Shown here: piece after piece, positions 172 to 53,100 of the stretch | How positions within the stretch are numbered: the first letter of the stretch is position 1 | Layout of the letters: every line of letters starts with the position of its first letter | From: Eledone cirrhosa | Lineage: Eukaryota | Direction: 5' to 3' | NCBI GenBank assembly: GCA_964016885.1 | Contig: OZ024743.1 | Span: 120,590,001 to 120,654,000, forward strand | DNA: 64,000 nucleotides | Program-made: the position numbers and the translations under genes | The notes under the pieces: generated by a model | Told to the model about the DNA's origin: nothing | What the model saw: the letters and a program-made list of their open reading frames with translations, nothing else | The model's database searches: none

Positions 172-240
<69 letters not shown>

Positions 241-2854: not shown

Positions 2855-2892
<38 letters not shown>

Positions 2893-2898
<6 letters not shown>

Positions 2899-4261: not shown

Positions 4262-4265
<4 letters not shown>
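3480..4265. mobile_element. Fold-back insert, family P2 (long copy)
   Basis: Inverted arms ~3573-3830 and ~4010-4261 plus a one-sided extension. Relatives at 13500-13720, 26398-26635, 28542-28580 and 55688-55868. Confidence 0.7.
4191..4241 (+). ncRNA. Hammerhead-like motif with variant CAGAAGA core
   Basis: AGTTT CAGAAGA T-CCC-GTTAA-GGG-T GAAA GCA...TGC TT AAACT; further copies at 26481-26531 (+) and on the minus strand near 3590-3643 and 13601-13652. Confidence 0.55.
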
Positions 4266-4312
<47 letters not shown>

Positions 4313-4325
4313 TGTTATATATTGT

Positions 4326-4388
4326 ATTTTGTCTGATGAAGGCATACCATGATTTAACTTGGTATCCTTGAAATATATATAATGAAAT
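4326..4388 (+). ncRNA. Minimal type I hammerhead ribozyme
   Basis: ATTTTGT CTGATGA AGGCATACCA...TGGTATCCTT GAAA TATATA TA ATGAAAT; short palindromic stem III as described for Penelope hammerheads. Confidence 0.75.
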
Positions 4389-4482
4389 AAATATGGTTTT
4401 ATAAATATAGTTTCCATTTATTAATATTGTATATATATATATATATATATATGTAGATATATAGATATATACATGTATATAT

Positions 4483-4527
<45 letters not shown>

Positions 4528-5111
4528 AACACACACTCACACACACACACACGCACATATATATATATATATATATACACATGCATATATAAATGTATAC
4601 ATACACACATACAAACACATACGTACACACACGCACGCGCACACACATATACACACAGGCACACACGCGCATATATATATAACAAATATAACTAGCGGAA
4701 ATCGATTCGTTTCGACTAGGCACAAAACACCTGATTTTTAGAAAAGGAAACGTAGGCTGCTTGGCGTTCATACCTTTATCAGCAGCGGCAGCAACTACAG
4801 TAGCAGTATTCATCTAATCAAAGTGATAACTTTTACTGCTGATGCTGTTACATTTTATTGAAATGTTGTTTCCTAATTATTACTTTTAATCATATAACAT
4901 CCCCAGCTAAAGCAATTTGTCAATGCAACTAGACGGCTACTCTAACAATATACAGCAGCTCTCTAAATTAGTGTTATAGCTATGGAAAAAGTAATCTCTA
5001 GGGAAATGCTATACTTCTGTATTAGAGAGACAGCATTGCTATTGCTGCTATAACTACTGCTCTCGCAGTAACCGCCACTGCTGTTCATTACTCCTACCAT
5101 TGCCAGCGTTA

Positions 5112-5138
5112 CTGCTGCTGCTACTACTACTACTACAA

Positions 5139-5180
<42 letters not shown>

Positions 5181-5195
5181 GCTGCTGCTGCTACA

Positions 5196-5244
<49 letters not shown>

Positions 5245-5245
5245 T

Positions 5246-5308
<63 letters not shown>
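5112..5308. repeat. (CTA)n/(CTG)n microsatellite
   Basis: Direct observation. Confidence 0.95.
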
Positions 5309-17985: not shown

Positions 17986-19000
17986 TGATGGCGACTTGAT
18001 CTCCAAGCGAGACCAGCTAAGTTCATGGATGTTATCCAACCATCTTGCTCGGGGTCTACCCCTGGGTCTCCTGCTGGTTGGTTTTACCCGCAAAATCTGC
18101 CCTTCAATTCTTTCCTGAAACATTCTAAACAAGCCAATAGAATGGGAGCTGTGATCTCTCAATTCGGAGCTCTTGAACCGCTCTTGTGAGCTCAGCTTCT
18201 GAGAGATTAGTCACCTGTCCAAGATGCACCTCGTGTACATCAGAAGATGCTGTTGTGATCGGGTTTTGGAGATCAGAAAAGTATTTTATGCACCTCGTGA
18301 GGATGCACCTCTCTGAAGACAGGAGAACCCCATACGCGTTCTAGATAACAGGTGTGGTTGTTGGCTTCTTATTATGAAGTCGCCGAATGGTCTGCCAGAA
18401 CACTATACTTGCTGATCTGAAGTCAGATTCTAGCTTAACTGAAAGTCCTTCCATGTCTTAACTTGGGATGTCTTTACTGTCATTGCTGCGATTCTTTCTG
18501 CCCTCTTGTACCGCAAGTACATGGAGGAAGACTTATTTCCAAGCCAAGCTTTGTAAGCCCCCTTCTTTGCTCGGATAGTATCTTTGACCTCGTGATTGAA
18601 CTAAGTAGTCCTCCTGCCATCCGGCGCCATACTAAGCCTCTTTCGTCCGCAGTATTTAACAACATAAACTAGAGAGCTGAATAATCTCCACTCCGTTTCA
18701 AGGTCCTCAGTTTGCTCAGGGAGTTCTCTGAATTTGGATGCAATAGTATCTGCACACCTGGTTCTAATTTCCACCAATGCTTCTTATATCCACCAATGCT
18801 TCCTAATTTATTCTGTAGAGAGTCCATTGCTAGAACAGAAGTCTAGTAAGACCTCTCCATTCGTATTTATATCGGGATCGCCATTCCTTCCAGTCACTCC
18901 TTTCCATGTCAGGTTGTCAGTGCCAACATGCGCATTGAAGTCTATTATCAGCATATATGACTCAGTCATAACTAAATCTCAAGACTTCAGAGAAATATTT
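17985..19000 (-). pseudogene. Second RTE-clade LINE remnant (APE plus 3' end), antisense to the first
   Basis: DFNAHVGTDNLTWKGVTGRNGDPDINTNGEVLLDFCSSNGL and RRPRGRPRARWLDNI. Confidence 0.8.
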
Positions 19001-19009
19001 ATAATCCAT

Positions 19010-19790
19010 CCCTTTAATAACATAAACAATTCTATCTGTGACAACTCTCGCGGTATCTCCCGGCTCTGTGTTGCTGATAAAGTACATGCCCGTGTCATTC
19101 TGAGCAGAATTACATCCAGACTTGTTACTGATATCTATCATGAAAACCAATGTGGTTTCCTCACAGGGCGGGGTACTATTACCAGTTTGCTGAGAAGGTT
19201 CGTAAAAAGAAACAGAAGCTGTTTATGGTGTTTGTCAACTTCACCAAAACGTTGACACTGTCGACTAAAAAGCTCTCTGGGAACCTTAAAAAGGCTTGGC
19301 ATACTTGGAAATCTGGCAATGTGCTGATTGTCAGCATATGTTTATATGAGGTCATGAAAGCATCAATTATATCAAATTGTGAATGCTCTTAACCCTTTCA
19401 TGTCACAAATGGTACGAAGCATCTTTGTTCTTATCTATAATTCTCCAGTATGCATTTGGTGGCTTATATACCGGTGTCAGATTTGAATTCTATATATCAT
19501 GTGAGTTATTCAACCATCAGCACTTTAAGGCTACCATTCATACACGAACAAGTGTTATTCGTGATTTGCTGTTTCTGATGGACGAAGAGGCACAAACATT
19601 GATGAACCGCTTCTCGCTTGTCTGCAGGAGGTTTGGTTTAACAATCAGCCAAATAAACACCTCCTAGGCAAGTAGATGTTAAACAAGGACAGCCGGGGCA
19701 CAGGCAATCCCATGTTCCCATCACTGCTGATCGCAAAGATCTGACGTATGTGAACCTTCTTACATATCTAGACAGCCAGATGTGCTAGTA
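19010..19790 (+). pseudogene. RTE-clade LINE, degenerate RT fragment
   Basis: CDNSRGIS...ENQCGFLTGRGT, LFMVFVNFTK, IRDLLF...RFGLTIS. Confidence 0.8.
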
Positions 19791-28649: not shown

Positions 28650-30150
28650 TTCATACTTATTATACTGTCCGTCTGGTAATTCAATTCCTTCCATCTTATC
28701 AATTCTACCTCGCTTCAGTAGTAGTTCGCCACACTTTTTATACCAAATTCCATTCCTATGTCCGTATTGGATGTGTGTTCTGTCTATACAAGGGAATTAA
28801 TATGTTCATAGTATTCCCCATAAAGTTTTAGGTCATCCATGAACAGCAGATAGTTTATCTGAAACTCACTCATAACCAGCATTTGACCTTCTCAACACTA
28901 ATGAAAGTGGAACCATACACAATATAAACAGCAAAGGTGAAAGTCTGTTTCCCTGAAATATCCGTATCTTGATCTCCACATCTCCCAATGTCTGTCTACA
29001 TGATGTCAGCTCTGTCTTCCAAACACTCATACTGCTCACCAGAAACTGTCTAACGTTAGCTGCAATACCAAACATTTCCAAACATTCTACTATATGACAC
29101 CATGACATAAGCCTTGCTGTAGTTGATCCAGGTCATGGCAAGGTTTGTTTGTCTCCTTTTACAATCTTTAAGGATCGCCTTATCAATCATCATCTGATCC
29201 TTAGTCCCCTTGCTTTTTCTCTCACATCCCATTTGCTCTTCCAGTAGTGTCTCCTCCAGGTATTCATATATTAACTCAGCAATGAGACCTGTCATAAGCT
29301 TCCACATAAGCGGGAGGCAAGAGTTAGGTCTAAAGTTGTCAACTGCATTTACTTTGCCGGGATCCTTCAAACACAAGATCGTTCTCCCAAAGATTAGCCA
29401 TTCTGGCAATCTCTTTTCTCCATTCAAGATCTTATTCAGTTGCTCAGCAATTCTCCCATGACGGGCCATCAGCATTTTTAACCAGAACCCTTGCACACAG
29501 TCTCTGCTGGGAGCGTTCTAATTTGATTTTCTACGCTGGATATTTACCATATCAGTTGTTATCTCCAATTCTCCATGTTGGCTATCCCCAATGCCATTTT
29601 TGATGTTAGTCAAGCACTCCACATTTCTATTGTGTTCTTTTCCTACACTCTAGATATCGCTCAAAAACTTCTTACTTATATCCGCATCAGGGATTATATC
29701 ATTCCTAACCATGCCATTTACCTCCTTATAGAATTATTTCTGATTTTGTTGGAAACATACATTCTGTTTATACTGCGTAATCCGTTGTTCATACCTCTTA
29801 ATCTTTGCAGCTTTGGCAAGTACCTTTTGTTTCAGCTCTTCTATTACCGTAGTAATTTTCTTTCTGCTGATATTGTATTTTCCTGTAATTTGTTCATTAT
29901 TTCTCCCTTTTCATAATTCACCTCTTTTTTCCCTTTCCAGAATATCAATTTTCTTTCCTAAGCATGTTGATGTCCCCCCCAATTCGTCTTTCCCACCTTG
30001 ATTTGCTTTTGTGTAGTCTCTTCCAGACCTAACTCTTTAGCAATATAGATACTTGCAGCACTGATTAGATTGTTGGTTTCTGTGGTGGTTCTAGTTGGCA
30101 CCTTGTCAAGTATGTTGTTTACTTTGTTAGTTATTTCTTTTAGCTGGCGT
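28650..30150 (-). pseudogene. Older, diverged R4/Dong-like fragment (copy D)
   Basis: Translations [62 protein letters not shown]. Confidence 0.85.
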
Positions 30151-30572
30151 TGGCTTGCAGAATCAGTGGAGTGTTGGACAACATGTTTAGTGACATAGAG
30201 TTATGGCCCTTTACGGGCTGAGTTCAAAACCCGCCGAGGTTAACTTTGCCTTTCATCCTTACGATAAAATAAAGCACCAGTAACGTCGATTTAATCGACT
30301 TTCCCCTCCCCCAAATCACTGGCTTTGTGCCTTTACTAGAAATCATTGTTGTTATTGATAAAATAAAGTACCAGTAATGCACTGAGAAATTTCTGGCCTT
30401 GTGCCAAAAGTAGAAACAATTATTCTTATTATTATTATAATTATAACCTCCCACCGAGGTTAACTTTGCTTTTCATCCTTACGGGGTCGATAAAATAAAG
30501 TACCAGTAATGTACTGGATAATTTACTGGCCTTGTGCCAAAAGTAGAAACAATTATTATTATTATGATTATT
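30150..30572 (+). mobile_element. SINE cluster with repeated 3' halves
   Basis: One head plus repeated GATAAAATAAAGTACCAG...GTGCCAAAAGTAGAAACAATT segments. Confidence 0.8.
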
Positions 30573-33500
30573 CTTTGAGTCATTGATGTTATTTAACTGG
30601 AAAGTTTGTTGAAATGAATATCAAGCCACTACCTGTAGCCTTAGATATTCAGGACGTATCGGAGGGTTATTGCTGTTCCCAGCAAGCATGCCTTTTGAAG
30701 CGTTCCAAAAAGCGTGAAGGGCCAATTTTCTTTAACCATCCCTGGAAACCTTTTGAGATAGTCCCTAGTGCGCCTATGACAATCCGGACCACTTTGACTT
30801 CATGGCAGTTCCAAATCCTTTTTACCTCCCACTTTAAGTCCTGGTATCGGTTAATTTTCTCCCTCTCCTTCTCTTGCACTCTCGTGTCGAATGGGCAGGC
30901 CACATCCACAATCAGGCACGATCTTTTTTCTTTGTCCACAACCACCAGGTCAGGTCTATTGTGTTCCAGTTTCTTGTCCGTCTGTATCCTAAAATCCCAC
31001 AGCACCTTCACCTGATCGTTTTCTATCACCGCCTCTGGCTTATGCTCATACCACTTATCAGAATGTGGTAAATTGTTTACTTTGCATAGGTGCCAGTGGA
31101 TCACCCTGCCCATCACATCATGTCTCCAGCCCTTATAGTGAGTCTGGGCTAGGTGTTTACACTCGGATACAATGTGAGCCACAGTCTCCTCTCTCTCTCC
31201 ACAGATCCTGCACAGTGGGCTAGCCTCCTCCTTGTAAATGTGGTGTTTCAACCACTTCGTTTTGAGAGCCTGCTCCTGTGCAGCCATTAACATTCCTTCT
31301 GTAGCCTTTTTAAGGTTTCCTCTTTTCAACCAGTTCCATGTCTGTGGATCTCTAAATTCAGTTTTCTCAAAGAAGGTACTATGAAGGGATTTTTTCTGAA
31401 GGCTGCTCTTTCTCCTTGATGTTATTTCCTCCTTGGATATCCCCTGGCCTATTGTCCCCTCCTTCAGTACAGTTCTGAGCATTGGCTCCTTACTATCAGT
31501 CACGTATTTGTGTAGGTTGTTTTTCTCCATCTGAACACAGTCCTCTATGCTGATAAGACGTCTTCCACCTTCAGATCTCCTTAAGTAGAGTCTATCGACA
31601 TCACTCCTCTTGTGGAACATATTGTAGATAGTCAATAGCTTCCTAGTCTTCCTATCCATTTCTTTTTGTTCAGCAACATTCCATCTCAGAATTCCCGCAC
31701 TGTACCTTATAATAGACACAGCTCGGGAATTTAATGCACTTTTGGCATTCCTACTGTTCAGATGTGACTTTAATACGCTCCTTACTCTCCGAAGGTTTCA
31801 GTTCTTATCAATTCATTCATTTTTTTGTTCTTGATGTCATCAGCCTCCAGAACGCCCAAATACTTGTATCCGTCCTCAGAGTCAATTTCCTTTATCATCT
31901 CACCTGTTGGTATCTGGATTCCGTTACTTCTGCTCAGCTTACCCCTCCTCATCACAATGAATCCACACTTACTAATACCAAATTGCATACATATATAATT
32001 GCTAAAAATACGGACAGTGTCAACAAGCACAATCAACTCCTTCTCACTCTTCCCGAAGAGCTTAAGATCGTCCATGAAGAGGAGGTGATTGATGGTAAGC
32101 CCTCCCTTTCCCAACCTGTATCCTGCTCTCACTTTTCGCAGTACACTGGTCAGGGGCATCAGGGCAAGGACAAACAACAGAGGGGACAGACTATCTCCCT
32201 GGAAGATACCTCTCTTGATCTTCACGCTTCCCAAGGATTCTCCAGTTGATGTTAACTCTGTTTCCCAGGCCTTCATACTTTTGCCCAACAACTGTCTGAT
32301 GTTATCTGCCACCTTGAAGATCTCCAGGCTTTTGGTGATCCAAGAATGAGGCACCATGTCAAATGCCTTTTTGTAGTCTATCCATCCCATGGCAAGACTA
32401 GTGTGTCTCCTCTTGCAATTCCTCATTACCATCTTATCAATAAGTAACTGGTCCTTTGTACCACGTAAACTTCTTTCGGCATCCTTTCTGTTCGTCCGGT
32501 AACAAGTTGTTTGTGTGGAGGTGATGGTAGATTTCCTCAGACATAATGCTTGTCAACAGTTTCCACATTACGGACAGACATGTGATAGGTATATAGTTGG
32601 TAACATCATTACCCTTGATTCGGTCTTTCATTATCAGAACTGTGGTACCTTTTGTCAATCACTCTGGTACCTCACCTGACATCAAGCAGTCATTGAACAT
32701 GGTTGTCAGTTTCGGGTGGAGGGATGTTATGTTTATAATCCAATACCCCTGCACACCATCTGGGCCAGGTGATTTCCAGTTGGTTAGTTTTTTGGCCTGC
32801 TCCTTAAAAGTTTCAACTGTGATACTCAAATCAGTTTGTTGGTGTGCCTGTTCACTGATCTCCTTCTGTACTGTCTCAATCCACACTGCCTGGTCATTAT
32901 GTTTAACATCCTGCTCCCATATTCCTCTCCAGAATGTCTTAGTTTGTTCCGCCTCAGGGATCAAGTCGTTGCCTCTTTCTTTCCCTTCAAGCTGTCCAAA
33001 CAGCATCTTCTGGTTGTTGTCGAACATGCGGTTCTGTCTATACTGACAGACTCTGTTCTCGTATCGCCTGATTGTTGCACTCCTTGCTACAATGCGTTGC
33101 TTCAGTTCCTCTATGATAATATTTAGCTTTTTCCTCCTAGCTTTGTACTTTATTTCCAGTCTATTTTTAGTGTCTATGTTTTTTAGTGTCCCATTCAGTA
33201 GGGACTCAAGCTTTCCAATGTCATTTCTCATTTCCCTGATTTGACCACTCAGTCGTTTCTTCCACCAAGGCTCTGCTCTTTCTTGTCTGTTGTTTCCCCT
33301 CGCTTTTATACCAAGTAGTTTCCTCACCGTATTTGCTGTTGCTTTGAGGATATTGTTGCACTGGTGAAGGCTCCTCGCCTCAAGGTATGGGATGTCTTTG
33401 TTTACCTTAGCTGTTTCTTTTAACTTTTTCCTGTCTACAAATCTTAGGTTCATAGGTCTCCCACTATCATTGTTCAATTCATCTACCACTAAGTTTAGGA

Positions 33501-33745
33501 TATCTACCAAATCTTGTCCTAGCCCGTCAGCATTCATCTCCTCAGTGGCCGTATCTCTGTTCCAGGTATTATTTATCTCAGCATTCAGATCATTGTCTGC
33601 TTCGGGTGGTTCCTCCGTTCTCTCGACCTCTTCACCTTCATTTCCCACTGGCTCGTTTGCCTGGCATAGTCCACCCTCCATCTCCAAGCTAATCTCTCTG
33701 CTCAGTTCCTCCAGTTCCAGCTCGCTTATCCACCCATTAGTTCTT
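30573..33745 (-). pseudogene. R4/Dong-like copy B, 5'-truncated and frameshifted
   Basis: ORF pieces 32659-33740, 32437-32658, 31782-32432 and 30667-31719 are collinear with and highly similar to copy A; stops and frameshifts present; 3' end sits in the (ATT)n tail of a SINE. Confidence 0.92.
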
Positions 33746-33896
33746 CTTCTTCTTCTTCTTCTTCTTCTTCTTCTTCTTCTTCTTCTTCTTCTTCTTCTTC
33801 TTCTTCTTCTTCTTCTTCTTCTTCTTCTTCTTCTTCTTCTTCTTCTTCTTCTTCTTCTTCTTCTTCTTCTTCTTCTTCTTCTTCTTCTTCTTCTTC
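33741..33896. repeat. Pure (TTC)52 microsatellite between Dong copies B and C
   Basis: Direct observation. Confidence 0.95.
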
Positions 33897-34743
33897 TTTG
33901 AGTCTCAGTCATTGATGTTAGTTAACTGGAAAGTTTGTTGAAATGAATATCAAGCCACTACCTGCATCCTCAGATATTCAGGACGTATCGGAGGGTTCTT
34001 GCTGTTCCCAGCAAGCATGCCTTTTGAAGCGTTCCAAAAAGCGTGAAGGGCCAATTTTCTTTAACCATCCCTGGAAACTATTTGAGATAGTATCTAGTGC
34101 GCCTATGACAACATTTTGACTTCATGGCAGTTCCAAATCCTTTTTACCTCCCACTTTAAGTCCTGGCATCGGTTAATTTTCTCCCTCTCCTTCTCTTGCA
34201 CTCTCGTGTCGAATGGCCAGGCCACATTCACAATCAGGCACGATCTCTTGTCCTTGTCCAAAACCACCAGGTCAGATCTATTGTGTTCCAGTTTCTTGTC
34301 CGTCTGTATCCTAAAATCCCACAGCACCTTCACCTGATTGTTTTCTATCACCGACTCTGGCTTATGCTCATACCACTTATCAGAATGTGGTAAATTGTTT
34401 ACTTTGCATAGGTGCCAGTGGATCACCCTGCCCATCACATCATGTCTCCAGCCCTTATAGTGAGTCTGGGCTAGGTGTTTACACTCGGATACAATGTGTG
34501 CCACAGTCTCCTCTCTCTCTCCACAGATCCTGCACAGTGGGCTAGCCTCCTCCTTGAAAATATGGTGTTTCAACCACTTCGTTTTGAGGGCCTGCTCTTG
34601 CGCAGCCATTAGCATTCCTTAAGTCTTCTCTTTTCAACCAGTTCCATGTCTGTGGATTTCTGAATTCAGTTTTCTCAAAGAAGGTACTATGTAGGGATTT
34701 TTCATGAAGGCTGCTCTTTCTCCTTGTTGTTATTTCCTCCTTG
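33896..34743 (-). pseudogene. R4/Dong-like copy C, ~850-bp 3' fragment
   Basis: ORF 34103-34615 matches the knuckle/RLE region of copies A and B; same 3' UTR; small deletions. Confidence 0.92.
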
Positions 34744-35006
34744 TTATTATTATTAATATTATTATTATTATTGTTATTATTATTATTATTATTGAATGCC
34801 ATGGTTGACGGAGGCTCGGCTCTGTAAGGTATAGTAATTTTTAACCGTTAAAACAATTGTAAATTGTTTAAAACTTGAACCAAATTGTTGATAAAGACAC
34901 CCTCCTCCTCGTGAGAGGGGTCTTTCTGTCCGTTATTTGGCCCTTCGGGGTTAAATAACCAGTTATTGGGGTTTTGTACCCAAAATTTCATTTTAAACAA
35001 AAAAAC

Positions 35007-37097
35007 ATGGCTACCAAAAAGAAATTTCATACGTCACTCCCACTCATTCCGTCTTCTTCTTCCTCAATCATCACTACAGCAGAGAGAAGATTGTCTCTCT
35101 CCCTCCCTTCTTTAAATGTGTCTCTCTCCCTCCCTTCTCTTTCGCAAGCGACGAAAGAAAAGAAAAGTCTCGTGCAAAGCGTGCAAGGTTTCTCCACGAC
35201 GACGACGACAGCGACGAAACAGGTGTGCGGGAAATACGAAAACCCAGTTCATTCGTCTGACGTCAGGAATAATAGCAGTAGCAGCCGTAATAACAACAGC
35301 AACAGTGACAATGAAAACAACAGTAGCAGCCGCAACAGCATCACCAGCAGCATAAACAACAACAGCATTAGCAGCAGCAACACCAACAACAACCACAGCA
35401 ACAGCGGCGGAGGCAGTAGTCGTAGTACCTGCAGCAACAACAAAAGTACCAGCAGCTCTGACGACAACAACAACAGCAGAGAAAAACCAATCTCATTTGC
35501 AGGTATTGCGAAAAACCTGGAAACAATCCTCATAACAAATGAGGAATTAGAGGAAGCGAAGAAGATGGTGACAAAGAACGGACACCGAGCAATCTGCAAG
35601 GCAGCGAAAAATTTTTTCGAAACCCAAGAGCACTGTACGGTCACGTACCGTACAGTAAGTACAAAATCCCGTAGGGTGGAAAGAGCCACAGAGGCCCAAA
35701 TACAAAAAGCCTTGGGGTCTGTGTGGCAGAGGAAAACGCACATCACCCGAGGCAAAAAATACGCCACCGTAGACGTACTTTTTGCCACACCCCAGGAGGC
35801 AAAGGCCCAATCAGTAGTGACCCTAAGGAGCGAGGAAATGGTGTTGGTGCCCTCCTACTGCGGGCAAAAAATTGTGAGGGTCAAACTGACCCACGTCCCC
35901 CCCGGAATGACCCCTTCTTGGCTGGCCGCGTCTGTCCTCGTCGGAATCGAGGACAAAACAACTGTACTGCAAGTACAGAAAAAAGTAAGAGAAGATTGGG
36001 TCGGCTCCTCCATTGAGATGCTAATCCAAACCAACCAGGAGTGCATCGAAGCTATCCCGGATGTGATAGACTTCGATAACGGCACTCAACTGCCCATAAG
36101 TGTTGAGGGCAAACGCCCGAAATGCTTTCGCTGTGGATCGAAGACTCACCTCAGGGCCTTCTGCAACGAGAAGACCCTGAGAAAGGAGAAAACCCCCCTC
36201 CTCCCGAATCCGGTTCCACGGCTACCAGCAACAGGACAAGCGGCAACCAGGAACGATAGGTCCGTGGCACCCATACCCACTCCACGGAAATCAAAGACAG
36301 CAGCAGCAGTGGAAATATTAACAACAACAACAGCAATACCAAATGCAGCTGCAACAGAGACTCCAGTGCAAACATCACCAACAACAACAAGTGAAAGAGT
36401 GGAGCTGGTACCCCTCCCCGACCTTACAGAATCAGACATGGAGTGTGAGGTGGGAGAGGGATGGCAAAAGGTCTCAAGAAGGCACAAACGCAGAAGCAGC
36501 GCATCGTCGCCTTTGAAAAGGGAGGAAAGAAATGAGAAAAGGGTAAAGTCTACTGCAAAGAGACCCACAGCAGCAACACCACCAACACCATCACCACCCA
36601 CACCAGCACCACCATCACCACCGGCGACAACCCCACCGCCAACAACACCTTCAACACCACAAGCACCAACATCGCAAACACAACAACAAAACACACACAC
36701 CCAGCAACAACGACAAGAAAATAGCAGAACCACACCCCACCCCCAGAAAAACAAATGCACGGCAATAAACACACACAACAAGAAACTAATGACTTACATA
36801 ATTGAACACACAGACATTTCACAACAGGACTACATAATACCAGCACCAATCAAAACGCCAACTAACATAAGACTGCTAAAAATAGCACAGAAACAATACA
36901 CAAACATTAAAACGAAATTCCCCAACGCAGTTGGTGATTTCAGGGACCTAGGAGGAACCATTAATCGAAGAGTATATTCAGACATTCTCTTAGAAGAGCC
37001 GACGACCAGCCGAAGGGACGATTCAACGGTCCCTTCACCAGACGATCAAGTGAAAAGGGATGTAAAAACCATCCCTCCTCTACCAAAAATACGGTAA
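35007..37097 (+). CDS. Tx1-like ORF1 (gag-like nucleic-acid-binding protein with zinc knuckle)
   Basis: Open frame from 34974, first ATG at 35007; CX2CX4HX4C knuckle CFRCGSKTHLRAFC; S/N-rich and P/T-rich low-complexity segments; directly upstream of an APE-RT ORF. Confidence 0.85.
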   Translation: MATKKKFHTSLPLIPSSSSSIITTAERRLSLSLPSLNVSLSLPSLSQATKEKKSLVQSVQGFSTTTTTATKQVCGKYENPVHSSDVRNNSSSSRNNNSNSDNENNSSSRNSITSSINNNSISSSNTNNNHSNSGGGSSRSTCSNNKSTSSSDDNNNSREKPISFAGIAKNLETILITNEELEEAKKMVTKNGHRAICKAAKNFFETQEHCTVTYRTVSTKSRRVERATEAQIQKALGSVWQRKTHITRGKKYATVDVLFATPQEAKAQSVVTLRSEEMVLVPSYCGQKIVRVKLTHVPPGMTPSWLAASVLVGIEDKTTVLQVQKKVREDWVGSSIEMLIQTNQECIEAIPDVIDFDNGTQLPISVEGKRPKCFRCGSKTHLRAFCNEKTLRKEKTPLLPNPVPRLPATGQAATRNDRSVAPIPTPRKSKTAAAVEILTTTTAIPNAAATETPVQTSPTTTSERVELVPLPDLTESDMECEVGEGWQKVSRRHKRRSSASSPLKREERNEKRVKSTAKRPTAATPPTPSPPTPAPPSPPATTPPPTTPSTPQAPTSQTQQQNTHTQQQRQENSRTTPHPQKNKCTAINTHNKKLMTYIIEHTDISQQDYIIPAPIKTPTNIRLLKIAQKQYTNIKTKFPNAVGDFRDLGGTINRRVYSDILLEEPTTSRRDDSTVPSPDDQVKRDVKTIPPLPKIR

Positions 37098-37132
37098 GTG
37101 GTCTTTCCCATCGTTTCCACTCTATTTTAAAC

Positions 37133-40100
37133 ATGACCTCACTCAGAATAGGCAGCATAAATGCGCGTGGCTTGGGGTCGTCATGGAAGCAGGGTCACCT
37201 GCTCAACGACCTCAGGTCACTAAACATAGATGTAGTGGCCATCAGCGAGACCAGAATCTCCGAAGCACGGGCCTTCGCACCGATCTTCGGCGGCTACGAT
37301 GTGTACGCATCTCCCAGCCGTCCTGGATCCGGTGGAGGAGTTGCTGTACTTTTTCGGAGAGGTTTGGATCTCGCCATACGGGCCATCTTCCTGGACCCAG
37401 AGGGTAAGCTGGTGGTGCTGGACGTGACCAGCGGAGACGGGCAATCTTTCAGGCTAGTGGCCGTCTATGCCCCGACAGGAGCAGGGCGGCCTGATTTCTT
37501 CCGGCGTCTGGAGACCTTTCTTGGAACGTCCCGCTCTTTAGTGTTAGTGGGCGACTGGAACGGGATCTTAGATGCACGCTGGGACTGTGTGGGATTAGCG
37601 GATAGGGGTGGAGGGTGCAAAAGCCTCACCAACCTGCTCAGGCGTTTTGAACTGTCTGACAGGTACCGATTGGATTTCCCGAATGTGCCAATGTGGACTT
37701 GGACAAACCGCATAGGGTCATCCAGATCATATCTAGATAGAGTATTTTGTAGGGAAATAGATAGGTCTAGCATAGGCTGTCCACAATTCAAGATAGTCAG
37801 CTACACGGACCACAAATTCGTGACCTGTGTGCTTGACTTAGATAGGCTTCATAGACGAGGACCCGGCTACTGGAAGCTAAACGCGTCCTTACCAGCGCGC
37901 AAGGCCTACAGAGACCGGATTAGCGAACTAGTTAAGCGGGCGTTGACGGGGGCCATCGTCAACAACAAGTGGTGGTTTGCTCTGAAAAGAGCGATTAGAA
38001 TAGAATCGATTAGGTTTAGTAAGGCTTTAGCAATAGAGAAAAATAGAGCAGAGGGAGAACTAGTTAGAAAATTAGACGAGGCGCTTAGCAAAGGCATTGC
38101 GACCGACGTGCTTGCGGCGAAATTGGCCCTTGACCAATTCTTCAATGCAAAGCACGAAGGCTGCGTTGTCAGAGCTAGGGTGCGTGCTCTCAGACACGAG
38201 GGGACGAAAGCCGTTCAATGGGCCCGAGTGGCGGAGGCGCGTCGTGGCAACAAAGCCACGATCCGGTCTTTGGTGGACCACGACGGGCGCATGCTACTCG
38301 ATCCCGGGCAAATGTGTGAAGCTTTTCAGCGACACTTCGCTCAGCTGTTCGGGGGCAGCGGGGGGCCGGGTAGAGGGATGGACTTTAGTGTCTACCTCGA
38401 CGGGCTGCCGCGGCTCTCGGCCACTGAGGCGAGGTGTTGCGAAAAGCCGATAACAGCCGCTGAAGTACGGGAGGCAATGACTGGCTGCACAAGGGGTAAA
38501 TCGCCTGGTTTGGATGGTCTGCCCTATGAACTTTACGTACAGATGCCAGACTTGTTCGGAGGCCTCTTGGCGGACGTCTACTGCAACTGGCAACAGAACG
38601 GGAGAATTCCCAGTTCTGTGAGCCGAGGAGCGGTGGCACTGCTGAGAAAGGATCCGAACAAGGGGGATAACATAGACAATTTCCGGCCCATAACTCTGCT
38701 AAACACAGAGTTTAAGATTTTGGCCAAGGTGCTAGCAAAGAGGTTGGCGCTTGTCGTTGGTGGTCTGGTGGGAGAGGCGCAGACATGCGCCATTCCCGAC
38801 AGATCCATCCACGACAACCTCCACCTCATGCGATACATCGTAGAGAGGGTAGCTAGGGAACCTGGCACGGGTGGGTCCTTGATCAATTTAGATCAGTCGA
38901 AAGCTTTCGATAGGGTCGACCATCGTTACCTAGCGGCAGTCCTGAGGGCGGCTGGCTTTGGGCCCGTCTTCAGAGGCTGGATCGCTGCCATGCACAGCGA
39001 CATCTGCTCTGTGGTGAGAGTGAACGGTCACCTGTCGGAACCGTTCAACATCATGCGCTCGGTCCGCCAAGGATGTCCCCTCTCGTCCCTCTTGTACGTA
39101 TTGACTCTCGAGCCATTACTGCACAAACTGGAGACGTTGAGGGGAGTCCCGCGCGAACTAGGATGCGGAAGATCCGTGTCAGCATATGCGGACGATGTCA
39201 CCGTAGTGGTGTCGAACGCCAAACACATCGAGGCGATCGGCACTACACTAAGAGAATACGAAGCGGTGACAGGAGCAATGATCAACCAGGAAAAGTCAGT
39301 GGGCCTGCAGCTCGGCACCTGGAGAGGCAGGTCCATGCCGTCCAACAGCGTCGTCGGGCGCTGGACGGACGGACCGGTTAAATTGCTAGGGGTCTGGTTC
39401 GGTCCGGACCTCCAGACGGACAAAAACTGGGACGAGGTGACGAGCAGGGTGGCTTCTCTCACCCAGAAATGGGCGGAGAGGAAGCTATCCCTGAAAGGTC
39501 GAGCGGAGGTGGCTAACGCGTACATCGCGTCTGTCATCTGCTACCGCCTAACCGTCGTACCTTGTCCTAAGCCTCGCCTGACTGCGCTGGAGCGTTTGCT
39601 CTTTCGCTTTTTGTGGAAGGGACGTGCTCCGATGGTCAGGCGGTCCATCTGTTGTCAACACCCGCTACGTGGAGGGCTGGGCATGCCGTGGCTGATGATG
39701 CGCAGGCACGCGCTCAGGCTACGACATCTCCACCTCTTCCTCGACGGTGATCAGGTGTGGTCGCCGTTTGCTAGACGCGTTTTTCCCCAGCTCGTTTCCT
39801 TGACGGAGCTGCAGTCCTGGGTCAAGCGAAGACCGAGAGGGAGCGCCTGGAGACTGGAATGTCTTCAGGCGCTCACAGCCCTCGACCAATCGGGCAATGT
39901 GATCGGTGGAAACTCCACCTCGGCGTTCTATAGAGGATTAGTGGAGGGGAAGAGCGACGACGTACTTGGGGAAACTCTAGGCGTCGACGAAAATCAACTA
40001 GCCAATCTCTTCGGAAGAACTTTCGGGCCAGGGCCTATGGACAACTTCCAGAAATCTCTGGCCTGGCAGTGCTACCGAGGAGCCTTGCCAGTTCGGGATA

Positions 40101-40552
40101 AACTCTACAGGCATGGAGGTGCCGTCAGCCGGGCATGTCCGAGATGCGCGCAGGGCGACGAAACCGTCCTGCACGCACTCGTCCAGTGTCCGAAAATTGC
40201 TGACTTGTGGGTTTATGTCGAACACCTGCTGTCGCGTTTAGGACGGATCCGGCTATCATCTGAGTCCATCGTGATGATTACCCCGCCCTCCTCCTTTAGC
40301 CGGGAAGGGCAGGCAGTTTTTATCTGCCTGGTGGCCATGGCGAAAGAGATAGTATGGTGGACACGTTTGAAAGGGCTGAAGACGAGCACTTACCTCTTCG
40401 GTGATGCTCTGATTGACTTTTTCAAATTTCATTTGAAAAGGAAAATCAGAGTAGAGAGGGAAGTGCTCTCTTCCCAGCATTTTGTTGAAAGATGGGTGAG
40501 AGAAGCAAGAATGGCCCGAGTGAATGGGCCTACTCTGAGCATATATCTGTAA
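37133..40552 (+). CDS. Tx1-like ORF2: APE endonuclease, reverse transcriptase and C-terminal Cys/His motif (1139 aa)
   Basis: APE motifs SINARGL, SETR, VYAP, GDWN, YLDRVF, TDHK; RT motifs KSPGLDG, FRPITLLN, DQSKAFDRV, RQGCPLS, YADD; C-terminal CPRC...ETVLHALVQC. Confidence 0.95.
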   Translation: MTSLRIGSINARGLGSSWKQGHLLNDLRSLNIDVVAISETRISEARAFAPIFGGYDVYASPSRPGSGGGVAVLFRRGLDLAIRAIFLDPEGKLVVLDVTSGDGQSFRLVAVYAPTGAGRPDFFRRLETFLGTSRSLVLVGDWNGILDARWDCVGLADRGGGCKSLTNLLRRFELSDRYRLDFPNVPMWTWTNRIGSSRSYLDRVFCREIDRSSIGCPQFKIVSYTDHKFVTCVLDLDRLHRRGPGYWKLNASLPARKAYRDRISELVKRALTGAIVNNKWWFALKRAIRIESIRFSKALAIEKNRAEGELVRKLDEALSKGIATDVLAAKLALDQFFNAKHEGCVVRARVRALRHEGTKAVQWARVAEARRGNKATIRSLVDHDGRMLLDPGQMCEAFQRHFAQLFGGSGGPGRGMDFSVYLDGLPRLSATEARCCEKPITAAEVREAMTGCTRGKSPGLDGLPYELYVQMPDLFGGLLADVYCNWQQNGRIPSSVSRGAVALLRKDPNKGDNIDNFRPITLLNTEFKILAKVLAKRLALVVGGLVGEAQTCAIPDRSIHDNLHLMRYIVERVAREPGTGGSLINLDQSKAFDRVDHRYLAAVLRAAGFGPVFRGWIAAMHSDICSVVRVNGHLSEPFNIMRSVRQGCPLSSLLYVLTLEPLLHKLETLRGVPRELGCGRSVSAYADDVTVVVSNAKHIEAIGTTLREYEAVTGAMINQEKSVGLQLGTWRGRSMPSNSVVGRWTDGPVKLLGVWFGPDLQTDKNWDEVTSRVASLTQKWAERKLSLKGRAEVANAYIASVICYRLTVVPCPKPRLTALERLLFRFLWKGRAPMVRRSICCQHPLRGGLGMPWLMMRRHALRLRHLHLFLDGDQVWSPFARRVFPQLVSLTELQSWVKRRPRGSAWRLECLQALTALDQSGNVIGGNSTSAFYRGLVEGKSDDVLGETLGVDENQLANLFGRTFGPGPMDNFQKSLAWQCYRGALPVRDKLYRHGGAVSRACPRCAQGDETVLHALVQCPKIADLWVYVEHLLSRLGRIRLSSESIVMITPPSSFSREGQAVFICLVAMAKEIVWWTRLKGLKTSTYLFGDALIDFFKFHLKRKIRVEREVLSSQHFVERWVREARMARVNGPTLSIYL

Positions 40553-40813
40553 ATTAAAGGTGGAAAACTGGGAGAGGGCACTTGCCTTGGTGGTCAGGGT
40601 CATTGTGGCTTTTTACTGGGCTTTCTCCACAAATGTCCCTCCGAAGTCTCCCCCCTATTGGGGAATTTTTCATTGTTATTTTCATTGTTATTTTTGTTAC
40701 ATCCTCTGTTTTTGTTTTTTTTACACGCAGAAATGCCCATTTGTACCGTCCTGCATTGTCCTGCACTGTCCTTAATGTCTACTTTATGTAAACCCTTGTG
40801 GTTAATAAAGAAA

Positions 40814-40815
<2 letters not shown>

Positions 40816-40904
<89 letters not shown>

Positions 40905-40919
40905 GTTATTATTGTTATT
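40816..40919. repeat. (ATT)n shared by the 3' ends of Tx1 and Dong copy A
   Basis: Direct observation. Confidence 0.95.
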
Positions 40920-43900
40920 CCTTGAATCTCAGTCATTGATGTTGGTTAACTGGAAAGTCCGTTGGATTGAATATCAAGCCACTACCTGCAGCCTCAGATA
41001 TTCAGGACGTATCGGAGGGTTCTTGCCGTTCCAAGCAAGCATGCCTTTTGAAGCGTTCCAAAAAGCGTGAAGGGGCCGATTTTCTTTAACCATCCCTGGA
41101 AACCTTTGGAGATAGTCCCCAGTGCGCCTATGACAATCGGGATCACTTTGACTTCATGGCAGTTCCAAATCCTTTTCACCTCCCACTTTAGGTCCTGGTA
41201 TCGGTTAATTTTCTCCCTCTCCTTCTCTTGCACTCTCGTGTCGAACGGGCAGGCCACATCCACAATCAGGCACGATCTTTTTTCTTTGTCCACAACCACC
41301 AGGTCAGGTCTATTGTGTTCCAGTTTTTTGTCCGTCTGTATCCTAAAATCCCACAGCACCTTCACCTGACTGTTCTCCATCACCGCCTCTGGCCTATGCT
41401 CATACCATTTCTCAGAATGTGGTAGATTGTTTACTTTGCACAGGTGCCAGTGGATCACCCTGCCCATCACATCGTGTCTCCAGCCCTTATAGTGGGTCTG
41501 GGCTAGGTGTTTACACTCGGACACAATGTGAGCAACAGTCTCCTCTCTCTCTCCACAGATCCTGCACAGTGGGCTAGCCTCCTCCTTGTAGATATGGTGC
41601 TTCAACCACTTCGTTTTGAGGGCCTGCTCCTGCGCAGCCATTAGCATTCCTTCTGTAGCCTTTTTGAGGTCTCCTCTTCTCAACCAGTTCCATGTCTGTG
41701 GATCTCTAAATTCAGTTTTCTCAAAGAAGGTACTATGAAGGGATTTTCCCTTAAGGCTGCTCTTCCTCCTTGATGTTATTTCCTCCTTGGGTATCCCCTG
41801 GCCTACTGTCCCCTCCTTCAGTACAGCTCTGAGCATTGGCTCCTTACTATAGGTCACGTATTTGTATAGGTTGTTTTTCTCCATCTGAACACAGTCCTCT
41901 ATGCTGATAAGACCTCTTCCACCCTCAGATCTCCTTAGGTAGAGTCTATCGACATCACTCCTCTTGTGGAACATGTTGTAGATAGTCAATAGCTTCCTAG
42001 TCTTCCTATCCATTTCTTTTTGTTCAGCAACATTCCATCTCAGAATTCCCGCACTGTACCTAATAATAGACACAGCTCGGGAATTTACTGCGCTTATGGA
42101 ATTTCTGCTGTTCAGATGTGACTTCAATACGCTCCTTACTCTCCGAATGTATTCAGTTCTTAACAATTCCTTCATTTTTTTGTTCTTTATGCCATCAGCC
42201 TCCAGAACGCCCAAATACTTGTATCCTTCCTCAGAGTCAATTTCCTTTATCATCTCACCTGTTGGTATCTGGATCCCGTTACTTCTGCTCAACCTACCCC
42301 TCCTCATCACAATGACTCCACATTTACCAATACCAAACTGCATACATATATCACTGCTGAAAATACGGACAGTGTCAACAAGCACATCCAACTCCTTCTC
42401 ACTTTTCCCGAAGAGCTTAAGATCGTCCATGAAGAGGAGGTGATTGATGGTAAGCTCTCCCTTTCCCAACTTGTATCCTGCTCTCACTTTTCGCAGCATA
42501 ATGGTCAAGGGCATCAGAGCAAGGACAAACAACAGAGGGGACAGGCTATCTCCCTGGAAGATACCTCTCTTGATCTTCACGCTTCCCAAGGATACTCCAG
42601 TTGATGTCAACTCTGTCTCCCAGGACCCCATACTCCTGCCCAGCAACTGTCTGATGTTATCTGCCACCCTGAAGATCTCCAGGCTTTTGGTGATCCAGGA
42701 ATGAGGCACCATGTCAAATGCCTTTCTGTAGTCTATCCATCCCATGGCAAGATCAGTGTGTCTCCTCCTGCAATTCCCCATTACCATCTTATCAATAAGC
42801 AACTGGTCCTTTGTACCACGTGACTTCTTTCGGCATCCTTTCTGTTCGTCCGGCAACAAGTTGTTTGTGTGGAGGTGATGGTAGATTTCCTCAGACACAA
42901 TGCTCGTCAACAGTTTCCACATTACGGGCAGACATGTGATAGGTCTATAGTTGGTAACATCATTACCCTTGATTCGGTCTTTCATTATCAGAACTGTGGT
43001 ACCTTTTGTCAACCACTCTGGCACCTCACCCGACACCAAGCAGTCATTGAACATGGCCGTCAGCTTCGGGTGGAGGGATGTTAAATGTTTAATCCAATAC
43101 CCCTGCACACCATCTGGGCCTGGTGATTTCCAGTTGGTTAGTTTTTTGGCTTGCCCCTTAAGAGTTTCAACTGTGATACTCAAATCAGTCTGTTGCTGTG
43201 CCTGCTCACCGATCTCCCTCTGTACTGTCTCAATCCACCCTGCCTGGGCATTGTGTCTAACATCCTGCTCCCATATTCCTCTCCAGAATGTTTTAGCTTG
43301 TTCCGCCCCAGGGATCAAGTCGTTGCCTCTTTCTTTCCCCTCAAGCTGTCCAAACAGCATCTTCTGGTTGTTGTCGAACATGCGGTTCTGTTTATACTGA
43401 CTGACTCTGTTCTCGTATCGCCTGATTTTGGCACTCTTTGCTACAATGCGTTGCTTCAATTCCTCTATGATAATATTTAGCTTTTTACTCCTAGTTTTGT
43501 ATTTTATTTCCAGTCTATTTTTAGTGCCTATGTTTTTTAGTGTCCCATTCAGTAGTGACTCAAGCTTTCCTATGTCATTTCTCATTTCCCCGATTTGCCC
43601 ACTCAGTCGCTTCTTCCACCACGGCTCTGCTCTTTCTTGTCTGTTGTTTCCTCTCGCTTTTATACCAAGTAGTTTCCTCACCGTATTTGCTGTTGCTTTG
43701 AGGATATTGTTGCACTGGTGAAGACTCCTCGCCTCAAGGTATGGGATGACTTTGTTTACCTTAGCTGTTGTTTCTTTTAACTTTTTCCTGTCTACAAATC
43801 TCAGGTTCATAGGTCTCCCACTATCATTGTTCAACTCATCTACCACTAAATTTAGGATGTCAACCGAATCTTGTCCTAGCCCGTCAGCATTCATCTCCTC

Positions 43901-44484
43901 AGTGGCCGTATCTCTGTTCCAGGTATTATTTATCTCAGTATTCAGATCATTGTCTGCTTCGGGTGGTTCCTCCGTTCTCAGGACCTCCTCACCTTCATTT
44001 CCCGCCGGCTCGCTTGTCTGGCATACTACACCCGCCATCTCCAAGCCATTCTCTCTGCTCAGTTCCTCCAGTTCCAGCTCGCTTATCCACCCATTAGTTC
44101 TTATTACCCGAGCCTGCCCGGCCAATTTTTGTTCATCTAATTTAAATAAACCAATCTCGTTCCAGATGTTATGCATCCGTCTCCTGTAGCCCCTCTCCTT
44201 GGGGTTACTTTTCAGGTAGCATTGCATAACAGTTCTATTCAATTCTTTCGTCCAGTTGGTTCTGGCCCCTTTCCTTCTTCTTCTTCCTCCAACATCAGCA
44301 GTATTTGGTTGACAGTCAGGTTCCTGCTGCTGAGCCAGGGGGCACCTGTTGGGTGAGAGTCTGTCACATGACGTTCTAGTCTCCATTTCACCGTTATTCG
44401 AACTGTTTATGTTCGATATTTAAACACTCTTATCGAGGATTGGCGAATGTATGTTTACATAGCCATCTGTGGATCCGCCATCCC

Positions 44485-44485: not shown

Positions 44486-44555
<70 letters not shown>

Positions 44556-48029: not shown

Positions 48030-48318
48030 TAGCATTAAAGCCCGGCGTTGCTCGGGGTCATTAAGTTACCAAAGTTAGGTTGCACCACCCATTTTATGGC
48101 AGCACTTTTTTGTCTGCCAGGCACTGGGTGAATGAATTGCAGACCTGGAAGCAGGAGCTGCGCCAGCAGTGACAATTGTAGTTTCGCCTATGGATATTAT
48201 CTCTGTGCAAAAAAGTGTTGAAATTTATTGTTTCACAGTACTTGCGCAACACGCGCGTAGACGATGCCAGCCGAACAACAGAGCTGCGATGGAGTTGTTC
48301 TGCATGGTTGTCTGTGTG

Positions 48319-48866
48319 TTTTCTAAATTTAAGACAGTAGGGAGGGTTGTGATATGAGGGAGAGTTAGCTGTTGTTTCTAGCAGGTTTAGTGACCTCATA
48401 GAGGATATGTGTTTTCTAAATTTAAGACAGTAGGGAGTGGTGTGATATGGGGGAGAGTTAGCTGCTGTTTCTAGCAGGTTTAGTGACCTCATAGAAGATA
48501 TGTTTTCTAAATTTAAGACAGTAGGGAGGGGTGTAGTATGGGGGAGAGTTAGCTGCTGTTTCTAGCAGGTTTAGTGACCTCATAAAGGATATGTGTTTTC
48601 TAAATTTAAGACAGTAGGGAGTGGTGTGATATGGGGGAGAGTTAGCTGCTGCTTCTTGCAGGTCTAGTGACCTCATAGAAGATATGTCTTCTAAATTTAA
48701 GACAGTAGGGAGGGGTGTAGTATGGGGGAGAGTTAGCTGCTGTTTCTTGCAGGTTTAGTGACCTCATAGAAGATATGTTTTCTAAATTTAAGACAGTAGG
48801 GAGGGGTGTAGTATGGGGGAGAGTTAGCTGCTGTTTCTAGCAGGTTTAGTGACCTCATAGAGGATA
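48319..48866. repeat. Tandem array, 6 units of ~91-93 bp
   Basis: Unit TTTTCTAAATTTAAGACAGTAGGGAG...GACCTCATAGA(A/G)GATATG repeated. Confidence 0.95.
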
Positions 48867-48868
48867 TT

Positions 48869-49816: not shown

Positions 49817-51028
49817 TAAAGAGTTAAACAAGATTCAATGAGTATATCAAAGAATGAGTTTTACAGTAGATTGGAAGCACTCAACGAAAAAATAATTTTC
49901 CAGAGTTATTAATATTAAAATACAAATATTAATAAAATAGATGTTCTTTTGATCAATTACATTTTATTATACATATTTAGGATTTACAACAGTACGTCCT
50001 CATAAGACAAAATATAATGATACATAACATACCCTGAGATGTTAAATGGTTAAGATTTAATCAAGGTAGTGATTAACCTAAGAGAAAATTTAACATTTAT
50101 AGCCTAATAATGAGAAAATGCGAAAACGTAATCAATCAATAGAGAATGTGTGAGTAAGAAAAACGTTAGTTAATGTGACAGCTATAGAGATTTTAAAATA
50201 TATGATACTACAAGATAAGTTTATCTAGGAAAACATCTCATGAATTGTAACAGTCAGTGAGAGTCACTGAAATAGGATTTATAGAGAGGGGAATATAAGG
50301 GGGGTAATATATGCAGAAGGAGATTTTTCCGAAAGTTAAACGGTTAATTTTGAAAATATTTAATTTATGCTATTTTAGGGTGAAGAATCAAGATTTTAGG
50401 TTTTTTTAAAAATTGCTGGTTATTTATATTTATTAGTTTTGTAAATTCTATAAGTGTGTTAACATTTCTAAACTTCTGAATTTTATGAGGATAACATTTA
50501 AAGTATTTAGCTGGCCAGCGAAAAGGAAAATTTACACAGTTGAATATTTTCCTAAATGTAAACTTTAACGAAGGTAATCAATGTCAACATATTTGGCATG
50601 TAAAGCTTATGAAGTACTTATTGTTAGAAATATTTAAATAGCGATTATGTATATAGATATATATTAATGAGCCAGTATATATTAGGTAAATGATAACGAA
50701 AATAAAAATAAAAATAAAATAATTGATTGAGGCATGCTAAAGTTAAATATATACCTATATATAACAGGGTGTAAATGCATGAACAAACTCCTGCATATAT
50801 TACCCCCCTTATCTTTCCCTCTCTATAAATCCTATTTCAGTGACTCTCATTGACTGTTACAATTCATGAGATGTTTTCCTAGATAAACTTAACTTGTAGT
50901 ATCATACATTTTAAAATCTCTATAGCTGTCACATTAACTAACGTTTTTCTTACTCACACATTCTCTATTGATTGATTACGTTTTCGCATTTTCTCATTAT
51001 TAGGGTATAAATGTTAAATTTTCTCTTA
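49815..51028 (-). mobile_element. Family P5 long copy with ~238-bp inverted duplication
   Basis: Arms 50079-50316 and 50791-51028; decayed hammerhead (CTTATGA...TAAA) at ~49960-50018 minus; similar to 10090-10290 and 26030-26360. Confidence 0.6.
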
Positions 51029-52122: not shown

Positions 52123-52130
<8 letters not shown>

Positions 52131-53100
52131 ATACTTGGGGAGGGTCATATTTGTGTAATATTGCCAGAATTAATAACAGAACACACTCACTGTTTGGTTG
52201 GTTTTCGCTTTTCGCTTCTGTGTCTTTTATATCGGTAATCTAATTTATTCGGTCCTCAATGTTGCCATTGACTGACCAACGGTCAAAAATAATACAGATA
52301 CAATATAGACACAAACACATATATATATAGTTTATAAAAGTTCTTTCGTTGCACATCTGCAACATCGTCAGTGGTGCTATTGTTTCCTCCCGTTACATTG
52401 TATGTCTACGCCATTTTTATTTAGTCTTGAAATAGAACTTAGAAGGCCAAGACTAAACAGAAAGAATGAATAGAATAACAACACCCAAACAAACAACACT
52501 GACCTAAGAGAAGTATAAATAAATAAATAAATAAATAGATAAATAAATAAATAAATACATACACAAGCACAATAACAACAAACACATATAAACACACTAG
52601 TAAAGATAGAATACATTAACCGATACACAGTCACCCAATCACTAACACACATCAAACAAAACACTATATACACACACACAAACGCATGCGCAAAGAAGAC
52701 AAAATAAAATAAACAAACAAACAAATAAATAAATAAATATATAGACAGACTAAATAAAAATGGCGTAGACATACAATGTAACGGGAGGAAACAATAGCAC
52801 CACTGACGATGTTGCAGATGTGCAACGAAAGAACTTTGATAAACTATATATATATGTTTGTGTCTATATTGTATCTGTATTATTTTTGACCGTTGGTCAG
52901 TCAATGGCAACATTGAGGACCGAATAAATTAGATTACCGATATAAAAGACACAGAAGCGAAAAGCGAAAACCAACCAAACAGTGAGTGTGTTCTGTTATT
53001 AATTCTGGCAATATTACACAAATATGACCCTCCCCAAGTATAACAATATTTGTTTCGACACACGATTTCATATAAAAAACCTCGCAAAACTAATTCATCG
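52123..53100. mobile_element. Family P7 fold-back with ~305-bp arms
   Basis: Arms 52123-52427 and 52747-53049 nearly identical; extension to (TA)n; relative at 63830-64000; hammerhead-like core at 52803-52830. Confidence 0.75.

Follow-up and report, generated by a model that had tools for sequence, protein, structure and literature searches.

Stepwise A-to-G Replacement along the Source Lineage of a Dong/R4-Type Retrotransposon in Eledone cirrhosa

A Dong/R4-Type Element in a TAA Tract

The window, a stretch of 64,000 nucleotides from contig OZ024743.1 of the Eledone cirrhosa assembly, contains a non-LTR retrotransposon, here termed copy A, whose parts are as follows.

40994..44386, minus strand: open reading frame of copy A, one open frame of 1130 aa; Dong/R4-type non-LTR retrotransposon, youngest subfamily (Y)
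42206..42961, minus strand: reverse transcriptase domain, aa 476-727 (Pfam RVT_1, E=5.7e-23)
41513..41566, minus strand: zinc knuckle C-x2-C-x8-H-x4-C, from the translation, placed by the position of RHD
41246..41479, minus strand: restriction-like endonuclease motifs RHD and PD..D, from motif reading and alignment with R2
44387..44484, minus strand: remnant of the 5' UTR; ~90 nt further upstream are common to longer copies
40906..40993, minus strand: 3' UTR, from comparison of copies
40817..40905, minus strand: (TAA)n tract at the 3' end, from the sequence
44486..44554, minus strand: (TAA)n tract at the 5' junction, from the sequence and comparison of copies

The closest solved relatives of the copy A protein are R2 proteins. 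The zinc knuckle (CCHC) and the restriction-like endonuclease motifs are C-terminal, and aa 1018-1091 align with the R2 endonuclease region, an alignment that is weak taken alone (E=0.056). A Pfam match to Exo_endo_phos, the AP endonuclease domain, was not found in the frame, nor was one to a Myb/SANT-like N-terminal domain at E<0.001; in Dong, the latter is visible only through HHpred according to the accessible text of PMC7998251. The same text describes Dong (R4 clade, non-LTR elements with a restriction-like endonuclease) as having, like copy A, a single ORF with reverse transcriptase, zinc knuckle, and restriction-like endonuclease, and as inserting into (TAA)n. In the host assembly searched (3.0 Gb), (TAA)3 or longer lies no more than 33 nt from the 3' reference point in 84 of 87 young copies and precedes 54 of 71 truncated 5' junctions of relatives. 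Copy A fits a TAA-inserting Dong/R4-type element, an assignment made by domain set and target rather than by a tree containing named Dong sequences; a full-length Dong is listed for the Octopus bimaculoides repeat library in the accessible part of PMC9115989. An earlier reading made from the letters of the window alone (hereafter the sequence-only reading) had called copy A intact, which holds for the open 1130-aa frame but not for the 5' end, which is ~90 nt short relative to longer copies.

The window holds several further repeats. A very young two-ORF Tx1/L1-type element (34959-40800, plus strand), encoding an AP endonuclease and a reverse transcriptase, occupies the same TAA tract in opposite polarity to copy A. 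Two long inverted-repeat pairs that are MITE-like lie at 52123-53049 and 50079-51028 (305 nt at 99% and 241 nt at 97%, respectively), and a tandem array with a unit of ~93 nt, 92-94% alike, lies at 48315-48867. At 18668-19255 on the plus strand, a 195-aa frame is a candidate piece of another LINE reverse transcriptase. Words from copy A (41000-44380) also occur in sequencing runs filed under many differently coded organisms, two of which contain 98-100% identical pieces at low depth; these matches may reflect contamination, diet or environmental DNA, related hosts, or transfer.

Copy A within Its Subfamily

Three relatives of copy A in the window entered the comparison.

30552..33748, minus strand: copy B, 5'-truncated and broken; older subfamily near the ancestor of Y
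33907..34743, minus strand: copy C, a 3' fragment; its subfamily is slightly older
29056..29517, minus strand: copy D, fragment of a distant family outside the subfamilies of A
42597..43350, minus strand: interval of copy A compared with B by the sequence-only reading; 31 sense A/G differences, 28 of them fixed between subfamilies

The sequence-only reading had counted 31 sense A/G, 6 T/C, 3 G/A, and no C/T differences with 6 transversions between copies B and A, and had proposed that an edited transcript of the element was retrotransposed as copy A. We find nearly the same counts in this interval: 50 differences, comprising 31 sense sites with A in B and G in A, 6 T/C, 3 G/A, 1 C/T, and 9 transversions. 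Across 3170 columns, the figures are A/G 73, T/C 28, G/A 20, C/T 9, and transversions 51. A 5' U or A stands at 21 of the 31 sense A/G sites (background 48%), the codon changes named between A and B are present in the sequences, and copy C has the same A state as B, all as claimed. Copy D, which had also been cited for the A state, is of a different family with 66-69% DNA identity and a poor outgroup, and the two A>G sites thought to be B's own (42471 and 42456) are common to 93% and 83% of the B group. Clustering of the A>G sites is present but mild, with 20 pairs within 10 nt versus 12.8 expected (p=0.015) and 28 A>G in the densest 750 nt versus 22.5 expected (p=0.024).

The 40 best genome matches to the core of copy A have identities that round to 100%. 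We compared 30 young copies, A included, over 2.7-3.6 kb; the 29 others are 99.1-99.8% identical to copy A, and G is found at 31 of 31 sites in all 30. At 28 of these sites the difference is fixed between subfamilies, 93-100% of the 30 B-like rows, one of them a duplicate of B, having A there; the other three are private G>A decay in copy B. Decay of B by G>A as the cause of the differences was considered and is rejected for the 28 sites, where G is fixed and derived. Copy A departs from the majority of its subfamily at just five positions: two are G>T, and A>G, G>A, and C>T account for one each. Given that all 30 young copies share the G state and that copy A has one private A>G, the hyper-editing mark is not peculiar to copy A, which is an ordinary young member of its family and no hyper-edited individual. 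Pairwise comparison between subfamilies is thus a trap for claims of hyper-editing.

Direction and Stepwise Gain of G

Changes were polarized with an older subfamily, 87-92% identical, as the outgroup, D being too distant. On the line to A and the young group, 55 of 104 polarized changes are A>G, which confirms that G is derived, and the remaining classes include T>C 17, G>A 11, and C>T 3; with the same outgroup, 13 changes fall on the side of B. The sequence-only reading had held that a family consensus with G would speak against it. The young subfamily does carry G, and B and C are older, yet G is the derived state nonetheless.

The subfamily tree is a ladder. It was sampled at 470 loci, which gave 521 segments after 17 duplicates were dropped; class counts leave out one chimeric segment and 14 between-class segments. 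In the 521 segments, 137 diagnostic sites resolve into 40 thresholds, and the share of A>G in successive fifths of the ladder is 14/24, 13/27, 15/31, 13/30, and 11/25 (43-58%). Two dense clusters of A>G sites lie along it.

42608..42636, minus strand: a 29-nt stretch with six A>G sites that arose in separate steps
43022..43064, minus strand: a 43-nt stretch with six A>G sites that arose over several steps, 43036, 43031, and 43022 close in time

A motif search returned 193 copies with G at 42608 and A at 42636; by eye count, 85 of the 100 matches listed of those 193 have G at 42627 and A at both 42617 and 42628. For the second cluster, 76 copies combine G at 43036 with A at 43064 and fall into eight haplotypes, in which, again by eye count, 42 have G at all four inner sites, 17 are without 43058, 5 are without 43057 and 43058, 2 add only 43031, 7 have 43036 alone, and 3 are others. 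These many half-way copies (193 and 76) reject a single-burst origin of either cluster. G thus replaced A gradually, a few positions per step, over 40 or more steps of the source lineage, and a single hyper-edited founder is excluded; the proposal that one edited transcript was retrotransposed fails on the same steps and half-filled clusters. No hyper-edited tract occurs among the 521 segments, where the maximum is 4 private A>G in 150 nt (reached by 2 segments, versus 6 for G>A), in a sample biased against hyper-edited or diverged copies by its use of top-similarity matches (each search scored the best 40 among 221-5252 candidates), of exact patterns, and of alignments above 80%.

Four copies, L356, L029 (41748-41938), L049, and L213, are mosaics that contain stretches of an older or a younger subfamily, which may reflect either template switching or gene conversion.

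Mutation Spectrum

The 260 polarized transmitted changes comprise A>G 105, T>C 48, G>A 40, C>T 15, and transversions 52, so that 125 (48%) start from A. Rare changes (8024 events in 424 copies) amount per kb to G>A 6.5, C>T 6.4, A>G 2.7, and T>C 2.3, and in old copies they are near strand-symmetric, rich in G>A and C>T, and host-like. Between the middle and the youngest class, silent A>G exceeds the host silent rate 25-fold (23/296 sites) and silent T>C 17-fold (12/273), with G>A at 3.4-fold, C>T at 2.3-fold, and transversions at 2.2-fold, ratios that are rough because class ages taken from top matches are biased low. Silent A>G and T>C so far above the host rate argue for input from retrotransposition itself. 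The changes thus likely arose during the jump, in the cycle from RNA to DNA and not in the chromosome, as the sequence-only reading had supposed. Amino-acid-changing A>G proceeds at 0.28 of the silent A>G rate, the commonest such change being K>R (17 of 48), and the frame stays open through purifying selection.

At silent sites, the sense strand lacks a one-way surplus in which A>G would far outnumber T>C: A>G affects 57 of 296 sites (19.3%) and T>C 40 of 273 (14.7%) (p=0.15); in a smaller silent set, the two differ at p=0.04. Silent A>G and T>C exceed their reverses 2.6-fold and 3.1-fold, respectively (p<1e-4). Symmetry of A>G and T>C had been named as a sign of GC-biased conversion, and half of that picture is found: silent T>C is raised too, yet G>A and C>T are unsuppressed. 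T>C is not a change that editing of the sense transcript can produce, and it needs another source.

The Tx1-type element of the window served as a control family for drift. Its 29 copies are nearly identical in ORF2, one being identical over 5141 nt elsewhere in the genome, and the family has no such drift (A>G 2/18 and 3/16 of polarized changes; p=0.012 and 0.11 versus Dong, on small numbers). In its young copies (L242-L270; ORF2, 37136-40552), private changes include sense G>A 9 and C>T 0 of 24 and shared changes G>A 6 and C>T 2 of 16, a bias opposite to that of the Dong lineage, and young Dong doubletons lean as the Tx1-type copies do (G>A 13, C>T 3 of 34). The G>A bias of the Tx1-type element could stem from rG:dT misreading or from deamination of first-strand cDNA.

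Neighbors of the A>G Sites

Silent A>G depends on the 5' base (p=9e-8), having occurred at 19 of 45 sites after U (42%), 29 of 108 after A (27%), 6 of 62 after C (10%), and 3 of 81 after G (4%). Mirror silent T>C, in the same order of classes, stands at 15/83, 11/56, 9/103, and 5/31 (18, 20, 9, and 16%), and A>G differs from its mirror in the U class (p=0.006) and the G class (p=0.036). The order U>A>C>G at silent A>G, unlike that of T>C, bears out the ADAR-like 5' neighbor of the sequence-only reading, given that the accessible texts of PMC9989829 and PMC9068888 present a favored 5' U or A, a disfavored 5' G, and a weak 3' G as the ADAR motif, in PMC9989829 across metazoans. A 3' G stands beside 42 of 105 A>G sites versus 28% expected (p=0.009). 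On side branches, 11 of 13 A>G changes follow a 5' U or A and 0 of 13 a 5' G (p about 0.01), and in the 48 youngest copies, A>G after 5' U or A is seen 19 times in sense versus 2 times in antisense (p=0.011). In predicted folds of three older copies, the A>G sites have better-paired flanks (raw p 0.002-0.025, GC-adjusted p 0.014-0.34); T>C and G>A sites have no better-paired flanks in the same folds.

Tight pairs of private A>G number 8 versus 3.2 expected (p=0.025), and pairs of C>T cluster as strongly (13 versus 4.8 expected). Micro-clusters of two to three private A>G, mostly after U or A, occur in L186 (42488-42491), L029 (42160-42161), L374 (43769-43778), and L334 (43362-43371), and these copies are the best single-molecule candidates for light editing. 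A polymerase-eta-like WA motif was considered and is rejected, with only 6 of 19 A>C or A>T changes after 5' U or A.

At first codon positions, A>G has no deficit after 5' G (6/18 versus 1.2 expected from the silent pattern, p=0.0007), and none of four A>G events in the UTRs follows U or A (three follow G and one C). Among rare changes, the surplus after 5' U or A is confined to the youngest class and absent from classes I, M3, M1-3, BC, and O (p 0.25-0.68); in the pooled rare changes, a small sense surplus is equal in both contexts. Silent A>G after G (3.7%) lies below its mirror (16%) and reverse G>A is scarce in NTG codons (2/82 versus 13/140, p=0.056), which together argue for codon or dinucleotide selection. 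Recurrence at later-fixed sites is not specific to A>G, because it is raised for all four transitions (3.1-, 2.6-, 2.1-, and 1.8-fold).

Reverse Transcriptase Errors and RNA Editing as Proposed Sources of Change

Our account of the observed ladder, direction, stepwise gain, spectrum, and neighbor pattern, which we hold at an even level of confidence, is that A gave way to G step by step in the Dong source lineage, that errors made by the element's own reverse transcriptase were the likely cause, and that light editing by ADAR likely contributed a share. Each jump would add on the order of zero to one change. Misreading by the reverse transcriptase would produce A>G as well as T>C in the sense strand; ADAR would occasionally deaminate one to three adenosines in UA or AA contexts within short folds of the transcript, and the resulting inosine would be read as G by the reverse transcriptase. 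Purifying selection would tolerate silent changes and mild replacements (K>R, S>G, N>S, and T>A) and in this way keep the frame open.

Reverse transcriptase errors very probably form the base load of changes and, by analogy with related enzymes, can alone give the overall spectrum. The accessible text of PMC11331410 (Roll-Seq) places 47% of the cDNA substitutions of R2 reverse transcriptase in vitro at T, with C misincorporated most, and by our reading an error at T with C corresponds to sense A>G. For second-strand synthesis by a retroviral reverse transcriptase, the accessible part of PMC6009661 gives ~70% of errors at A or T, chiefly dA>dG, and no neighbor bias, and for an avian R2 protein supplied with T7 RNA in cells, that of PMC11371274 gives about one error per 10 kb. 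As far as these partial texts extend, the R2/L1 and retroviral spectra (PMC11331410, PMC6009661) are like that of the Dong lineage, with errors mainly at A and T that yield A>G and T>C, and error rates of ~1e-4 per base fit zero to one change per Dong jump. Unlike the lineage record, these data are in vitro, from other enzymes, and with no neighbor bias reported, the context of R2 errors being absent from the accessible text.

These similarities also serve an account that dispenses with editing, in which errors of the reverse transcriptase (and of RNA polymerase) drive A>G and T>C, and codon or dinucleotide selection (against NTA, NCG, and NGG) shapes the third-position context. We regard it as a serious contender whose probability falls somewhat short of even. 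It accommodates a 17-fold rise of T>C that has no editing route, the similar extent of silent A>G and T>C (p=0.15), first codon positions without a 5' G deficit, A>G after G under its mirror with few NTG>NTA reversals, and the absence of hyper-edited tracts among the 521 segments, and the in vitro R2 spectrum in the accessible part of PMC11331410 matches the 48% of lineage changes that start from A. It is harder to reconcile with the same 5' U/A bias in side branches and in the youngest private changes, which are little sifted by selection, and with the 3' G surplus; silent TA>TG at 19/45 versus TA>CA at 15/83 (p=0.006) means that plain avoidance of UpA fails, and the retroviral second-strand errors are context-free in the accessible text of PMC6009661.

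We judge the chances evenly balanced that light ADAR editing adds a share on top of reverse transcriptase errors. If the 5' U/A surplus is editing, then editing would account for between one third and two thirds of silent A>G. The bolder proposal that light ADAR editing of its own transcript is a main mutation source of the active lineage, and that it accounts for as much as two thirds of silent A>G as well as many K>R and S>G changes, is tentative and in our judgment somewhat less likely than not.

GC-biased gene conversion, GC selection among copies, or a transcription-linked repair asymmetry in a resident master copy would explain why the excess over the reverse change is about as large for silent A>G as for silent T>C (2.6 and 3.1), and the mosaic copies do attest exchange between subfamilies. 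A pull toward GC, by selection or by conversion, fits poorly with the lack of any suppression of G>A and C>T, which like transversions stand at 2-3 times the host rate versus 17-25 times for A>G and T>C, and the neighboring Tx1-type family lacks the drift (2/18 and 3/16 A>G, small numbers); we consider this group of explanations improbable. We find it very improbable that one or a few hyper-edited transcripts were retrotransposed to give copy A or the founder of the subfamily: the high share of A>G, the ADAR-like neighbors, and the near-joint arrival of some sites (44192/44193; 43218/43205; 43036/43031/43022) would suit such an origin, but copy A has one private A>G, and the lineage passed through 40 steps of mixed change types with half-way copies for both dense clusters. 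An assembly or sequencing artefact can be practically discounted, as G is present in 30 of 30 young copies on four chromosome-scale contigs and the young state recurs in contigs from two other studies, which differ at 2 positions over ~478 nt inside 42597-43350, so that the G alleles are real DNA, as the sequence-only reading required.

Comparison with Known Deaminase Systems

With ADAR editing of repeats, as described in the accessible texts of PMC9989829 and PMC9068888, the Dong lineage shares the neighbor order at silent A>G sites, the 3' G surplus, and a predicted flank pairing that weakens after GC adjustment; that editing is at the RNA level and mostly clustered, whereas the Dong changes are in DNA and single, with T>C rising alongside. 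APOBEC editing of LTR retrotransposons (PMC4866542 and PMC2873906, in their accessible parts) likewise fixes a deaminase-type bias in genomic retroelements, but as G>A in single, damaged, hypermutated copies, in contrast to A>G over many steps in a lineage that remains active. In the Drosophila sigma virus, low-level ADAR-type change likewise shapes the mutation of a replicating RNA over the long term, according to the accessible text of PMC5630973, but this is an RNA virus without reverse transcription into host DNA, unlike the Dong lineage. Our search, with most subscription journals beyond its reach, found no literature report of stepwise A>G drift in a LINE lineage, and the accessible parts of the Dong literature (PMC7998251, PMC9115989) make no mention of directional A>G drift.

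The ladder provides a 40-step record of in vivo mutation in an active LINE-type lineage, mostly A>G and T>C and far above host rates. If light ADAR editing is a main source of it, single UA and AA edits would be written into germline DNA jump after jump, and the element would grow steadily richer in G yet stay active. With the ladder one can ask directly whether low-level RNA editing contributes to heritable change through retrotransposition, beyond rare dead copies.
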